Of a stretch of 48,646 bases of DNA, positions 9,972-39,989 are shown in pieces. The notes under the pieces were generated by a model. The model searched no databases and had not been told where the DNA came from. It saw nothing but the letters and a program-made list of their open reading frames with translations. The translations under genes and the position numbers were made by a program. The stretch is from Craspedostauros australis (taxonomy: Eukaryota), in NCBI GenBank assembly GCA_030167865.1, contig JALAGF010002523.1:1-48646 (forward strand), given 5' to 3'. Every line of letters begins with the position of its first letter. Position 1 is the first letter of the stretch.

Positions 9972-10619
9972 AACATCCGTACTGCTCGTACGAGTAATGC
10001 CGTTCTTGCGGCCAGATGGGATCTTCGAGGCGACGCTGAACCGAGCATGCAAGCGATGGAACACTCAGATGGGCGTACGAACAAAGAAGGGAGTGCATAC
10101 CGATGCACTATGAAGATGCAGTCCGAATGCTGCATGGACACAGGATGGTACGGATGCGCAGGCCTCGAATCTCGATTGCGTGATGTAATAGAACTTTAGA
10201 AGAAGAGGAAGCATTTTGAGCATGGACTCCAGTGTCGCTGCTGTAACATACTATTGTTCTCTCTCTCTCTCTCTCTTGAGCATTCTGCGATGACAGCAGG
10301 GACATGCGTGCTGTAATGTGCTGCTTCGAGTCGAGTCGAGCAGAGTGAAGCATGGTGGAGTGCTCTACAACCAGTCTACTCCGGAGTGGAGTCGCGTAAG
10401 GTGTTGATTCGAATCCTGTGGAAAACCGGAGATTCGAATGACCCCAACAGTAATGACGCACGCATTGCACCCATCAAAGTTCTCAAAAATGAGGACCGAA
10501 ACAACAAGGCACACAAGCCGCCCATCCACTTCAGCTCGACCTGACGATAGCGACCCAATCCTCGTTTGCAATACAATCGCACCCACTTGCACGAGTACTC
10601 GTAGCTGAACAGCAAGACA

Positions 10620-33873: not shown

Positions 33874-35202
33874 ATGCTGCAGATATTCGATGACAACGAT
33901 GAAGGCGCCGCATGGAAGTTCCCGCTGCTGCTGTCAACCCTGGCGGGTGCATCCACCTGCGTGGGCGCAGCCGTGGTCTTCTGCTTCTCCGCCGAGGTCA
34001 TCCGCGACACCATGACGTTCTCCCTTGCGTTGGCCGGATCCGTCATGATCACGGTCTCCGTCATCAGCATCGGGCCAGAATGCCTCAACGGCATCGCCTG
34101 GACGATGGATGAGGCTGCAGCCGACGAGGACGAGGAAGACTCATCGTTCACGCCGATGTACCTGCTCTTCGCGAGGCTCTGCTGGTTCTTTGGTGGTTGC
34201 ATCAGTTACATCCTCCTGTCCAAGCTGGCATTTCCTGAACCGACGGATCTGGTGCTCGAAGGCGGTGGTGAGGGCGGTCATCATGCCCACGGTGGCGGTG
34301 GCGGCATCGGTGGACACAGCAGCCATGCAATCAGCAAATCACCTCGAGATGTGCTCACGGAGGAGAACTACGAGATGCAAAAGCTCATGGGACCAGCGGA
34401 TTCCGATGGATTCGGTTCCCATCCATCATCCAACACTTCCACTACAAATGACAAATTCCAGCCACGCCGATCCAGCACATTCAGCAGCGACGATGGCGAC
34501 GGCGCGGAGGCATTCTCAGCAACGCGCAAGAAGGATGCTGCCCAAGCACGTCAAAGGCGGTCACCCAAATCCCCCAAATCGCCGTGCGGCCGTTCCGAAG
34601 ACGACAAGAGCGCGGGCAGCTATTCCAATCAAAAACAGAAACACTCCAAATCCACGCACGCCGTCTTCCAATGGTCCTCCGGCGCGGACCTCCAATCCGA
34701 CGAGGCCAAACGATCCTGGCGCGTCGCGATGCTCCTGTTCGTTTCGCTTTTATGCCACAACTTCCCCGAGGGCCTCGCCGTGGCCGCCAGCACAATGGAG
34801 TCGCGCCATCTCGGCATCACCGTGGCGGTGGGCATCCTGATTCACAACATCCCCGAGGGTATCGCGATCGCGGTACCGTGCGTGGCCGCGCGCCCCGACT
34901 CGCCGTGGCTGGCCTTCCTGCTGGCGAGCGGATCGGGATTGGCGGAACCGCTGGGTGCCTTCCTGGCGCTGTGCGTGCTGCCGAGCGGCAAGCGCATGCA
35001 GACGTCGGCCTTTCTGTCGATGGAGTGCATACTGGCGTCGGTGGCGGGCATCATGATATCGGTGGCCTTCGTGGAGCTGTATCCGGAGGCCTGGAGGCAT
35101 GGGATGGGGCAATGGAAGGATGCGGCGAAGACGATGTGGTCCATCGGTCTTGGAACTGTCCTGGGTGCCGTCATGATGGTAATTACAGAGTTATGCATTT
35201 GA
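33874..35202 (+). CDS. zupT: ZIP family (ZupT/GufA-type) divalent metal transporter (442 aa)
   Basis: TM4 HNFPEG and TM5 HNIPEG metal motifs, SGLAEPLGA, and a long cytosolic loop with GHHAHG..GHSSH. Confidence 0.9.
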   Translation: MLQIFDDNDEGAAWKFPLLLSTLAGASTCVGAAVVFCFSAEVIRDTMTFSLALAGSVMITVSVISIGPECLNGIAWTMDEAAADEDEEDSSFTPMYLLFARLCWFFGGCISYILLSKLAFPEPTDLVLEGGGEGGHHAHGGGGGIGGHSSHAISKSPRDVLTEENYEMQKLMGPADSDGFGSHPSSNTSTTNDKFQPRRSSTFSSDDGDGAEAFSATRKKDAAQARQRRSPKSPKSPCGRSEDDKSAGSYSNQKQKHSKSTHAVFQWSSGADLQSDEAKRSWRVAMLLFVSLLCHNFPEGLAVAASTMESRHLGITVAVGILIHNIPEGIAIAVPCVAARPDSPWLAFLLASGSGLAEPLGAFLALCVLPSGKRMQTSAFLSMECILASVAGIMISVAFVELYPEAWRHGMGQWKDAAKTMWSIGLGTVLGAVMMVITELCI

Positions 35203-35776
35203 TCTTGATTGCGGCAGTGCATTGTCTTGTGTTGAGTGCTGGAATACTCGACGTGTTGCTCCAGAGACTTCTTTGTTGATGTGCGAGTGTGCTGCTAATC
35301 GTGCAGGTAATGGACGGCACGCTGTTTCTCTCAAGGTGTGAGGTGGTGTTGGTGATTGGAGTCGAACCATCTTGTGTCATCGAACTTGCACTGAGACGTC
35401 ATGCAATCATGACAAGTTGATGTTGGTGTGAGCATCAGACATCCATCCACTCGAATGTGGTTGTCAAACAACTATTGTACACAACACCACAGCATGCTCT
35501 GGTCTTGATCGCAAATCTACCAACTCTCGTGAACTATGTTGTGTTATCGTTACCATATGCATTCCATCACTCTACTCGGAAATGAATGAAGCTGTGGATC
35601 AATGTCGGCAACGGATATGAGCGAGATTGGTCTGCGGATGCTGCAACCCAAACGTGTTGCTGATCGCATTCCTATGCCAGAGTCGCCTTTCCGACCATCT
35701 CCCATTCCAGGTGCCTGTTGGTGGTGTGTCTTTGCAAGATACCAAGACGCAGTATCTAAAGCTGCAAAGACGGTGT

Positions 35777-35866
35777 GGTTCTTCAGTCTGGTTTGCACGG
35801 CTCGATCAGAGATTCAAAGGAGAATTTGAAATCGAGCTCGATGCATACCAAACGTCATTCATACCT
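35777..35866 (-). promoter_or_regulatory. Candidate SECIS-like stem-loop downstream of the peroxiredoxin stop codon
   Basis: Minus strand AUGAC (35858-35854) and UGAA (35785-35782) flank a long, manually paired stem: GUUUGGU/ACCAGAC, UGCA/UGCA, GCUCGAU/AUCGAGC and UUCAAA/UUUGAA. Confidence 0.55.
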
Positions 35867-36076
35867 AACAGGTGTGGGAAGAGGGAAGTGTTGGAGGGAA
35901 GGGGACGTGATGGGAGGAATGCGAAGCTACAGCATCCAGGTCTCCTCAGGGACGGGACATGCCGAATGGCAAGCAGTCCCCTTGGATGCCAACTCCTGGG
36001 ACGTGCGACGGGACTCCATGTCTGCGCTGAGGACAGCGCATGTCTGTGCCCACCGGAAAGGGGGTCCAATGGAGCT

Positions 36077-36664
36077 CTAGGCTTCAGCCTTGATGGCCTC
36101 GAGCATGGCATCGTGGAGGGTGTCGGTTGGGTCGGAGTCACCGGCTGGGTCGTCCTCGGACTCGGAGACGGCGACGTACTTGACCTCGCCGTTGACGACG
36201 TGGATGGCGAAGCGCTTGGAGCGTCCGATGATGCCGACGGAGGGTGGGCCTGGGTGGGTCATCTCCATGCCGAGTTCCTTGGTGAACTCGGCGGCTGGGT
36301 CACCCATGAACTTGACGATGTTGTCAGCGTAGGTGGCGTCGCCGATCTGGTCGGCGGCCCAAGCCTTCATGACGGCTCCGTCGTTCACGCAGTAAACGAG
36401 GACCTCGTCGACTCCAGCCTCCTTGAGAGCGTCTTGATTCTCAAGGTAGCCTGGAACCTGGATTGCAGATCAGGTTGGGGTGAAGGCTCCTGGGAGGCCG
36501 ACGATGATCATGTTCTTGTCGGCGGCGTACTCGTCGATCTTGACGAACTCAGGAGGGAAGCCGGAGTGGAGGCTGGCGGCTGGGAGCTTGTCGCCGGCCT
36601 TGATGGTGAAGGCGAGGCTGGAGGCCACCGAGAGGGCGGCGGTTGCAAGAGAAAGGACTCTCAT
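36077..36664 (-). CDS. PRDX5: Prx5/type II peroxiredoxin with probable selenocysteine (TGA at 36472-36470), 195 aa, with signal peptide
   Basis: One continuous frame: ...IKAGDKLP...VGLPGAFTPT[TGA]SAIQVPGYLENQDALKEAGVDEVLVYCVNDGAVMKAW...GRSKRFA... The TGA sits exactly at the peroxidatic Cys of the PGAFTPTCS motif. Confidence 0.88.
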
Positions 36665-37647
36665 GGTTGCTTCTGTTGCTTGGCAGAGTTAATTTTATGA
36701 CATCACAGGGGCTGTGCCATCCCCAAGGAGTAGTAGTCGAGCGCCCGCAGTTCGTATTGGTGGGCTGTTCCGCACTCTGGTGAGGCGATGAAATTACGCC
36801 TTCATTTCTGAGTGGCCATCTGCACGAAAGCCGCAAAGTTCGAGCAGAATGCAATCCAAAGATAGCGCAGAAACACGCAACTCTCTCTTCGTTGGTGGCT
36901 GTTGGCCCCAGTTCTCATCCATTGGCTGCGCGGTGTCACCACAGGTGGCGCGTGTCAAGAGCGAAAGAGAGGGAGAGACGTCGGAGAAATCCTCGCGTTT
37001 GCCGATTCAGCAGGGCGTGCGTCATCATCGGCATACCCGCACGACGGTCTGACAATGGCGAATCTCCATGAAGAATCGAGTCGTGCATGAATCAAGATCA
37101 ACACGACTCCACGATCCGGTTTGATCACATTGACTCATTCGAAGTTCAATACGCAACGGTCGAATGTGAGCGAATTCAAATAACAACTCCCAATGTCGGT
37201 ATGTTTGTATTAAACAATGAATATAGTATATCAAGTTTACTTATGGGATGTGTCGTGGATGCATGTCGCATCTTCTCCAAACATTATTCGAAACTTTCTC
37301 CAATGATCTTTGCTGTGATGTGAGGATCACAAACACGAATGAAATCAGCAATTCTTCTGCTAGTGGGAGTGAACGAGGTGGTGGTGTCAATCGGTGCAAC
37401 CAACTTTGCTCTGATGGCGTGGCAACGGCAACGATGTCGATGAAGTGACGAGAAGCTTGTGCCCCGCACCGAGAATGACATGGGGAAAGCAATACGAGCA
37501 GAGCGTGCACCTGGTGGTGCGATACGAAGATCTTCTCTCGCCCTTCTCGTTTCGTGGACACAACATCAACAACATCAACAGCATCAGCAACATCACTGAC
37601 TCTGTGATCACAAGAAGAACAAAGCCACCTCAAGCCAACCTACCACC

Positions 37648-38190: not shown

Positions 38191-39989
38191 GGCTGCAGTT
38201 ATCCGCACGCCAGGATGGAATCGTAACATCGGTTTTTATGGACAGACAGCCGCAGGACGAGAAACAAGGGTGGAGAGCGAGCGAGTGTGTTAGTGAGGAA
38301 GTGAGTGAAAGATTGAGTGAGTGGAGAGGGACAGCATCACACTCCATGCCAAACGCTTGGACGATGCGTCATATGTGCTGGTACAAACGAGAAGCAACAG
38401 GAACAAGACAAGCAACGAAACACCGTGGATTCCTCGGTTGGTGAGAACAACCAGCTTGGCCGGTCCTCTACGATTCAATTTCAAATCGAATGGAATGAAC
38501 GAGAAGAGGGGACCGAGAGGCACGGTACCTGAATCGGTTTCTCCAAAGAAAGCAACGAATGCAATCATACCATCTTTTGGGTGTGGGACTTGGATCAATG
38601 ATCATATCAGAATGGACATCGTCAGGAAGCGAAGTGGACAAGTGGGAGCTGTACTCAAAATAGTGCGCAGGTAATTGCATGGTAGCGTACCATTTAGGAA
38701 CACAAGATATCTTCACGCTCTGCTGATCACACCTTTCTCGCATCTATGGGCAACAGGTGGAGCATCACAGGTATCGTTGATGTTGTGAGAGCATCGAGCA
38801 CGCACTGATGGAAATGTTGTTGACTGAGATGAGATGCAAGAGCAAGTGCGTAGCATCGTATCCAGCCTCATTGCATGTCACCAACACGATCTGTCCATCA
38901 TTCAACTGGTGACTGTGAGAGCAGGTGGGTCCACAGTTGCGAGTGCGGCTGATCTACATCACCAAAGAGGTGCCCAAACGCATCCGCGCCACACCCCAAT
39001 CTGTGAGACGGAGAAGGCTAATACAGATGGATGATGAATCGTGTGCAATCCATCTCCCAACCCAAGAGAAGGATGAACATCGGACGACACTCCACCAAAC
39101 GTATCCGATGGAAGCTCGGCGTCTCCTCCCGATCATTCTTGGACATCCCAACATCGCAGATCACGCATCACAGATCTCCGAAACACCCGACACAGGAGAA
39201 ACCCAAGGAGGGGTCGGAGAAGTTGCTTCTGGCGCGAGTTGGAGTATGCACGTGCTGAACACAATGAAGTACGTGGGTCTTGTTCACCCCGTGTGCGTCC
39301 GTTGATGTACCATGCAGAACGGATATGATAAGTCGTGTTGATGTCGATGTTGATTGGAGGCAAACCCGAGGTGCCGGATGCCAGATCATGGTCCCGCTCC
39401 AAAGTTGCTCCGTTCGATGCGAAAATCGAATCGAAACGGAAATGTTGTGAATTTAGACGTGCAAAGGTGCGCGATGGAGATAATCGAGATGCACATGAAG
39501 AAAGGAGTTGGGAAAGGATGATGTGGCGTTGTTGAAGTTCCAGATGGCAATGTCCAATGTGACACGGATGGACCGGATTCGAATGGTTTTGGTCGTGCAT
39601 AATCGGCTTTCTCCTCCCGAATACAACACGATACAGAGGCAGAAGAGGCTTTCGTGGTCACAAATACACGGTGGGATGTGATGACAATCGCGGCATTGGT
39701 GATGATGTCAAGGCGAATCGCCTCCACCCACTCTGCATGGACATCAACACGTATTCGTACTCCACGAGTGCGTCGTCTATTCGACGCGAGAGTTGTTGCG
39801 GTTCGACAAATGAAAGCACTCGTTGGTACAATAGGTCGTTAGGAGGCACACACACGAGGACCAACGCAAACAGAGATGTGTGATGCAAGAGGCGCAGGAT
39901 ACTCGGAGAGTGGGTAGGCAGTATTCTACATCATGGACGGTGCTGCAGGAGCATCAAGCTTCCCTTGATGTCGATGTCTCATAAAACTT

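Follow-up and report, generated by a model that had tools for sequence, protein, structure and literature searches.

The published consensus for the SECIS core is UGAN/KGAW, as given in the part of PMC3753652 available to us, and the primary pattern of SECISearch is set out in the accessible text of PMC2375036 as NTGA-N10-13-AA/CC-N15-39-GA. The AAR motif is treated as a defining part of the element: it is essential in mammals, and pattern-based searches require it. According to the portion of a review that we consulted (PMC2792357), mutation of the AAR in mammalian elements blocks Sec incorporation, and the AAR was without a known partner when that review was written.

Sec-containing peroxiredoxins of Thalassiosira pseudonana (two) and Ostreococcus are printed with GAFTPTU in the text of Lobanov et al. 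2007 as far as consulted (PMC2375036), and PRX is named among the most widespread algal Sec proteins in the corresponding part of Jiang et al. 2020 (PMC7539508). The same partial source reports diatom selenoproteomes of 20–44 genes, compiled through the conserved regions flanking the Sec-TGA.

Here we describe a locus in a 48,646-nt stretch of Craspedostauros australis DNA (contig JALAGF010002523.1; the whole stretch is called the window) that carries a clear selenoprotein gene whose only plausible SECIS is without an AAR at the required spacing; the same is true of 10 of 20 candidate elements behind orthologous genes. The selenoprotein itself is already known, because Sec-peroxiredoxins have been published and PRX is listed in algae, and so are many diatom selenoproteins. 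We found no description of AAR-less SECIS elements in diatoms in the literature on atypical, AAR-less or algal SECIS, as far as its text was accessible.

The host gene encodes a PrxV-type selenoperoxiredoxin

The peroxiredoxin frame on the minus strand (Table 1) is broken once only, by TGA 36472-36470 at residue 65, within the motif GLPGAFTPT-U-S. Reading this UGA as Sec yields a 195-residue peroxiredoxin, with the frame staying open for 130 codons past it. The Pfam Redoxin profile (PF08534) spans the UGA, covering residues 22-171 (E 5.7e-23, 81.8 bits against a cutoff of 26.6), and the gene belongs to the PrxV/Redoxin group by both its Redoxin domain and its PGAFTPTC(U)S peroxidatic motif (alignment A1). 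The translation suggests a hydrophobic N-terminal stretch.

In a large protein collection, 1,662 of 2,045 candidates are homologues at E ≤ 0.001 (best 74% identity), and the named entries among the best 120 come from diatom transcriptomes or genomes. The closest protein relatives, P0001 (74%) and P0106 and P0109 (75-77% identity), are absent from the set of DNA loci described below. Tryptophan occupies the Sec position in P0001-P0005 and P0007 (6 of the 10 homologues retrieved), where the source has read TGA as Trp; this misreading by the source's gene caller is seen in public collections among the orthologues P0001-P0007 and P0012. Other entries are disturbed at the same place. P0106 and P0109 start directly after the UGA position, P0119 (Nitzschia inconspicua) is without the residues around the Sec site, as though the gene model had jumped them, and P0009 is garbled at the Sec position.

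One scan of metagenome and metatranscriptome contigs, with an alignment of 13 proteins as query, returned 80 related loci, most of them about 1 kb long and mRNA-like. GAFTPT is present in 76, and the codon that follows it is TGA in 57, TGC or TGT in 18 and TCA in one (L002:245-247, GAFTPT-S-S), the last being due to a genuine replacement of the peroxidatic residue by Ser or to an error in a single base. The Redoxin domain running across the UGA, the 57 of 76 loci with TGA and the published GAFTPTU sequences together show that this gene needs a SECIS.

A hairpin with a SECIS-type core lies behind the gene

A hairpin with a kink-turn-like core occupies the minus strand of the 3' region, its AUGA starting 218 nt past the peroxiredoxin stop codon; in the ortholog candidates this distance is 65-207 nt. 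The element had been proposed in an earlier reading of the DNA (the original prediction), whose letters for the minus strand read identically in our analysis and whose estimate of about 220 nt after the stop agrees with the measured distance. The core, AAUGAC/CUGAA, has the kink-turn form (A/G)UGA-N plus K-GA-W, and its tandem G.A/A.G pairs would be non-Watson-Crick, as predicted from the letters.

Table 1 Features of the peroxiredoxin locus and its surroundings, in window coordinates
Feature	Position	Strand	Basis
PrxV-type (Redoxin) peroxiredoxin CDS, 195 codons	36077..36664	minus	frame, Pfam, homologues
Start ATG; stop TAG	36664-36662; 36079-36077	minus	peroxiredoxin frame
In-frame UGA, Sec codon at the peroxidatic Cys position (GAFTPT-U-S)	36470..36472	minus	ortholog codons and published Sec-peroxiredoxins
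3' UTR as covered by one assembled X1 contig	35505..36076	minus	public run, only guessed to be RNA
Whole SECIS-like element including weak helix I	35772..35865	minus	folding and covariance-model match 35775-35866
5' half of the kink-turn core, AUGA-C, preceded by GA (GAAUGAC, GA-AUGA-C 35860-35854)	35854..35858	minus	
Helix II, 5' strand, GUUUGGU-A-UGCA	35842..35853	minus	pairs with 35786-35797
Upper extension where the AAR loop usually sits	35798..35841	minus	MFE
UCAA, sole unpaired AA on the 5' side	35826..35829	minus	unpaired probability about 0.8-0.9 (partition function)
Helix II, 3' strand, UGCA-A-ACCAGAC	35786..35797	minus	pairs with 35842-35853
3' half of the core, U-GA-A (U 35785, GA 35784-35783, A 35782), fits KGAW	35782..35785	minus	
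Convergent ZIP zinc-transporter gene	33874-35202	plus	Pfam Zip, E 3.5e-27

Directly above the core, 11 of the 12 positions of helix II are paired, with one A.A mismatch, in both the MFE and the centroid structure, so that the GA/AG core and 12-position helix originally described are both present. Above helix II come a U bulge (35841), two C-G pairs (CG/CG), an A bulge (35838) and an 8-bp stem (35837-35830/35807-35800). In the MFE structure the apex consists of that stem, GCUCGAUU/GAUCGAGC (8 bp), an internal loop UCAA/CUCU, a mini-stem AUUC/GAAU (4 bp) and a 6-nt loop UCCUUU. The stem continues for about 14 further bp, close to the 15 first proposed; the long upper stem stands, and the UUCAAA/UUUGAA form given for its tip is the less stable one (-29.6 kcal/mol, against -32.4 for the MFE including a 3-bp helix I).

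Helix I is weak, as predicted, with 3-5 bp in two alternative registers. One pairs GGU 35865-35863 and UG 35861-35860 with CA 35777-35776 and ACC 35774-35772, and the other pairs the same GGU with ACC 35779-35777. A second AUGA lies immediately before the core AUGA, at 35859-35862(-) (UAUGAAUGAC), and part of it is used by one helix I register.

Folding of 35770-35875(-) with RNAfold, the check that had been proposed, gives a stable hairpin (-34.2 kcal/mol, z -4.25; none of 200 shuffles as stable). The complementary strand is equally stable (-38.0, z -4.5), so stability does not choose the strand, which is set by the core letters and the gene. No repeat of the hairpin was found elsewhere in the window.

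The hairpin has no AA or CC at the canonical spacing

AA and CC are both absent 10-13 nt past the AUGA, and the hairpin is therefore outside the canonical class as defined by the apical motif. The first AA lies 27 nt past the AUGA, that is, only at nt 28, with no CC in between; the observation that AA is missing from its usual position thus holds over this whole interval. The window has a type-II-like apex, which is reached 10 more bp and two bulges out from the kink-turn, and its AA lies at 27 nt against the usual 10-13.

Lacking AA or CC at the required spacing, the hairpin cannot fit the SECISearch primary pattern, whatever its fold, and SECIS-first searches that are built on that pattern must miss it. 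To this extent the expectation that standard searches may miss the element was right. SECISearch3 could still report elements without a canonical AA at a lower grade, a matter on which its source paper, in the parts consulted, is silent. The Rfam SECIS families (among them SECIS_1, RF00031) gave no match in the window at E ≤ 10. They also matched none of 32 ortholog loci, the textbook-looking L009, L040 and L052 included, so the Rfam negative is uninformative and does not bear on whether standard searches fail here.

The hairpin is the only sound SECIS candidate behind the UGA gene

We scanned both strands of the window (97 kb) for [AG]UGA...GA cores with at least 11 of 12 helix positions paired, and did the same in dinucleotide-shuffled windows. 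The shuffled windows gave 1.1 +/- 1.06 matches each and the real window gave two. Exactly one 5' core passes the scan in the 877-nt 3' region between the stop codon and the convergent ZIP gene, where about 0.01 would be expected. The other match in the window, 39681-39806(+), has 11 of 12 pairs; it is absent from the MFE structure (z -0.71) and is taken to be the expected chance match.

The canonical pattern occurs six times in the 1,077 nt past the stop codon, in no case with a sound helix. The best of these matches, CUGAU 35809-35805 with AA after 12 nt and AGAU 35757-35754, has 8 of 11 positions paired and a mismatched first pair. Relaxing the spacing over 37000 to 35000 of the minus strand gave 96 matches, the best having 7 of 10 pairs and again a mismatched first pair. 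No canonical SECIS with a sound helix therefore lies elsewhere in the UTR. The alternative core noted originally near 35525-35570 does exist (GUGAU 35570-35566 ... CGAG 35529-35526); only about 4 of its 8 helix positions are paired, and it passed no scan.

Ortholog 3' UTRs contain related candidates

The first 500 nt of 55 ortholog 3' UTRs were scanned for [AG]UGA and GA with at least 7 of the first 8 helix positions paired. A candidate is present in 30 of the 55 real UTRs, against 7.9 +/- 2.3 in shuffled sequences and 6 on the reverse complement. The letters AATGAC occur 26 times in the same 55 UTRs and 7.5 +/- 2.7 times in shuffles.

We aligned 20 of these candidates, which we had picked ourselves with pairing and AUGAC among the grounds for choice. 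Every aligned row has AUGA and GA, and almost every one has A in front of AUGA and C and G behind it. Pair types vary widely at the seven lowest pairs of the helix; a pairing percentage for these rows would be circular, because pairing was a selection criterion and several rows were picked for AUGAC. The window hairpin carries the same non-required flanking letters, A-AUGA-C-G and C-UGA-A, as the ortholog candidates.

We searched the window on both strands, without filters, using a covariance model built from the 20 candidates with the window excluded (R1). The top match of R1 is the hairpin (35775-35866(-), 22.7 bits, rough E 0.015), followed by a match of 12.5 bits. The runner-up, 10445-10507(+) (AAUGACG...CCGAAA), has no helix between its halves and no UGA gene was seen upstream of it. 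By the scans and by R1 alike, the hairpin picked out in the original prediction is the best and only SECIS candidate for the UGA gene. None of the 80 related loci resembles the window 3' UTR at the nucleotide level.

From AUGA to GA the ortholog candidates span 41-94 nt and the window element 76 nt, which indicates that long upper stems are common in the ortholog set. Two related loci, L026 and L033, share the flanks CUGUAGG-AAUGACGAU ... C[UC]GAUACGGGA[GA] and have very different upper stems of 64 and 78 nt, which suits them to a comparison of what is free to change above the core. In Rfam, the candidate stretch of another locus (L013:768-850) matches snoZ159, a family of C/D-box snoRNAs, below threshold (25.6 bits, E 0.72); C/D-box RNAs form kink-turns too.

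AA-type and AA-less elements are interleaved in the protein tree

AA stands at 10-13 nt in 6 of the 20 ortholog candidates (L001, L007, L009, L010, L027 and L047). CC is found at this spacing in four (L014, L026, L033 and L037), where it may be chance; CC-type elements are those assigned to vertebrate SelM and SelO. The other ten (L003, L004, L005, L006, L008, L011, L012, L013, L025 and L054) have neither.

We compared these types with a quick maximum-likelihood tree of 64 proteins, which took in the full set of 58 Sec rows together with 6 of the 19 rows without TGA. The window protein falls in a clade of ten (SH-aLRT 95) together with L001-L008 and L010, and the canonical AA is missing in 6 of the 9 Sec rows of this clade. 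Sister pairs are split: L001 has AA and L008 has none, and L010 has AA and L006 has none. Ten of the 11 AA-less rows lie in one 22-row clade (support 94), and every candidate found in a prasinophyte-like clade is of the AA type.

The recurrence of AA-less elements in the protein clade of the window marks them as a recurrent variant, not a one-off. They share no common apex, and with AA-type and AA-less elements forming sister pairs, the suggestion of a single lineage-specific type is not clearly supported. The distance from AUGA to the first unpaired AA is also scattered across 21 elements (10-17, 20-33, 38-45 nt, or no such AA), with no second mode, so that one extra helical turn was rejected as a family rule and is kept as a description of the window element only. 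A broader statement, that selenoprotein mRNAs of the diatom clade commonly use SECIS elements without AAR or CC at the canonical one-turn distance, the type-II-like apex in the window lying about one extra helical turn out, strikes us as doubtful.

UGCA stands about 10-14 nt past the AUGA, in the usual place of the AAR, in the window element (35842-35845(-); UAUGCAUC) and in L004 and L005 (UAUGCACU, GCUGCACU). It may be there by chance, because these amount to only two independent observations.

Sequence coverage of the 3' region

Two contigs assembled from a public run that we only guess to be RNA (X1), the sole run to contain this stretch, cover the 3' part of the locus. The first, 774 nt long, matches 35505-36278 with 0 differences and 0 gaps, and the second covers 36277-36631, including the UGA codon. 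By the colinearity of the first contig, a single intron-free molecule holds the stop codon, the hairpin and a further 277 nt. If X1 is RNA, the 3' UTR would tentatively be at least 571 nt long and intronless, with the hairpin included, and the transcript would not end before 35866, given the span of the contig. X1 has no cover on 34300-35504 and 36632-37251, which is compatible with RNA and was not counted as evidence. X2 and X3 contributed short conserved coding pieces only, at less than 95% likeness, and nothing for the UTR.

The two X1 contigs meet at 36277/36278, where mean depth changes from 454 (3' part) to 7.4 (5' part); a bias of cover toward the 3' end, an abundant shorter form or the assembly itself could account for this step. 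The hairpin sits in an 874-nt spacer common to the 3' regions of the convergent peroxiredoxin and ZIP genes.

The hairpin as a probable SECIS, and the alternatives

We conclude, with a probability of roughly 75%, that the hairpin 35782-35858(-), together with its weak helix I, works as the SECIS of the peroxiredoxin mRNA. The element fits in its core, flanking consensus, helix II, position and uniqueness, and departs in the AAR, which makes the hairpin a SECIS variant and not a standard member of the class. SBP2 binding and Sec insertion by the hairpin would follow by analogy with the eukaryotic SECIS elements that have been studied. AUGA 35858-35855 and GA 35784-35783 would form tandem sheared G.A/A.G pairs, giving a kink-turn that binds SBP2; SBP2 would recruit eEFSec carrying Sec-tRNA(Sec), and the ribosome would then read UGA 36472-36470 as selenocysteine at the peroxidatic position. 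The most economical reading, as these data suggest, is that the machinery of this lineage needs no AAR at the canonical place.

The functional SECIS could instead be another fold or lie at another place in the 3' UTR, for example CUGAU 35809-35805/AGAU 35757-35754 or an element too irregular for the scans, with the big hairpin as an alternative or regulatory conformation; we consider this unlikely. CUGAU/AGAU is the only match to the primary pattern that has most helix positions paired (8/11), with AA 12 nt past its UGA, and our scans, which do not tolerate bulges, left 25 of the 55 ortholog UTRs without a candidate, so they do miss elements. However, besides the mismatched first pair, three of its eight pairs are G.U and its UGA is preceded by C, not A/G. 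It is also without the A-AUGA-C-G letters common to the ortholog candidates, R1 finds no second match in the UTR, and the fold would reuse the 3' arm of the hairpin, making it mutually exclusive with a structure of -34 kcal/mol.

A quite unlikely explanation is that the hairpin is an inverted repeat in which AUGA and GA are coincidental. It would then be left over from a mobile element, give rise to a small RNA, serve either convergent gene as a 3'-end or stability element, or have no role at all. The equal folding of both strands would suit such a repeat, as would the end of the ZIP gene at 35202, which means that the region could be ZIP 3' UTR too; the core-plus-helix motif moreover arises about once per window by chance, and one such case was seen at 39681-39806. 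Against this, the window holds no other copy, and the hairpin stands in the expected place behind the only UGA gene, matches the ortholog candidates in its flanking consensus letters and is the top R1 match. Were it not a SECIS, the gene would be left without a recognisable one.

It is very improbable that the gene has a genuine stop at the UGA or is in decay, in which case it would need no SECIS and the hairpin would have no bearing on it. The window contains no tRNA gene, and hence no Sec-tRNA gene, as this reading would allow, but the frame is open for 130 codons past the UGA with the Redoxin profile continuing through residue 171, TGA is retained at this codon in 57 related loci, and the X1 contigs cover the region unchanged.

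If the hairpin is confirmed as the SECIS of the peroxiredoxin mRNA, the AAR requirement is not universal. Confirmation would also mean that nature offers, behind one and the same protein, a series of elements with and without an AAR in which the role of the AAR could be studied, and would make a case for core-only models in algal searches for new selenoprotein families. If AA-less elements are functional, the complex of SBP2, eEFSec and the ribosome either ignores the AAR or reads a different geometry, and SECIS-first searches miss novel selenoprotein families in these algae. The further proposal that diatom selenoproteomes are undercounted finds little support here, since homology surveys already list Sec-peroxiredoxins. 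Published diatom selenoproteomes being mainly homology-based, known families are unlikely to be undercounted and only truly new ones could be.

Comparison with known SECIS systems

The T. pseudonana and Ostreococcus Sec-peroxiredoxins belong to the same protein family as the window protein and have the same GAFTPT-U-S active site, judging from the text of PMC2375036 available to us. After Sec, L010 and L007 resemble the two T. pseudonana sequences published there, whereas the window protein is unlike both around Sec. The elements of the L010 and L007 type have AA 11-12 nt past the AUGA, where the window element has none.

CC-type elements (NTGA__CC__GA) show that the apical AA is not universal; as described in the same source in the part consulted (PMC2375036), they nevertheless keep an unpaired dinucleotide at the canonical spacing, whereas the window has neither AA nor CC. 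The long-mini-stem SECIS elements of Ostreococcus, Chlamydomonas and a Dictyostelium deiodinase-like gene resemble the window element in the long stem above helix II. As described in that text, they keep unpaired apical A's (AAA being stated for Dictyostelium only), which the window element does not, and the Ostreococcus SECIS has G before the quartet where the window has A (PMC2375036).

Compared with eukaryotic type II (form 2) elements, as defined in the accessible parts of the SECISearch and SECISearch3 papers (PMC2375036, PMC3753652), the window hairpin is without the unpaired AA or CC at 10-13 nt, and U and A bulges flank two C-G pairs in that place. In the rest of its architecture it is like them, lying in the 3' UTR of a UGA mRNA and having an AUGA-N/N-GA-N core from which a 12-position helix II rises, followed by another helix and a small apical loop; the weak pairing below the core, with its two registers, would correspond to helix I.
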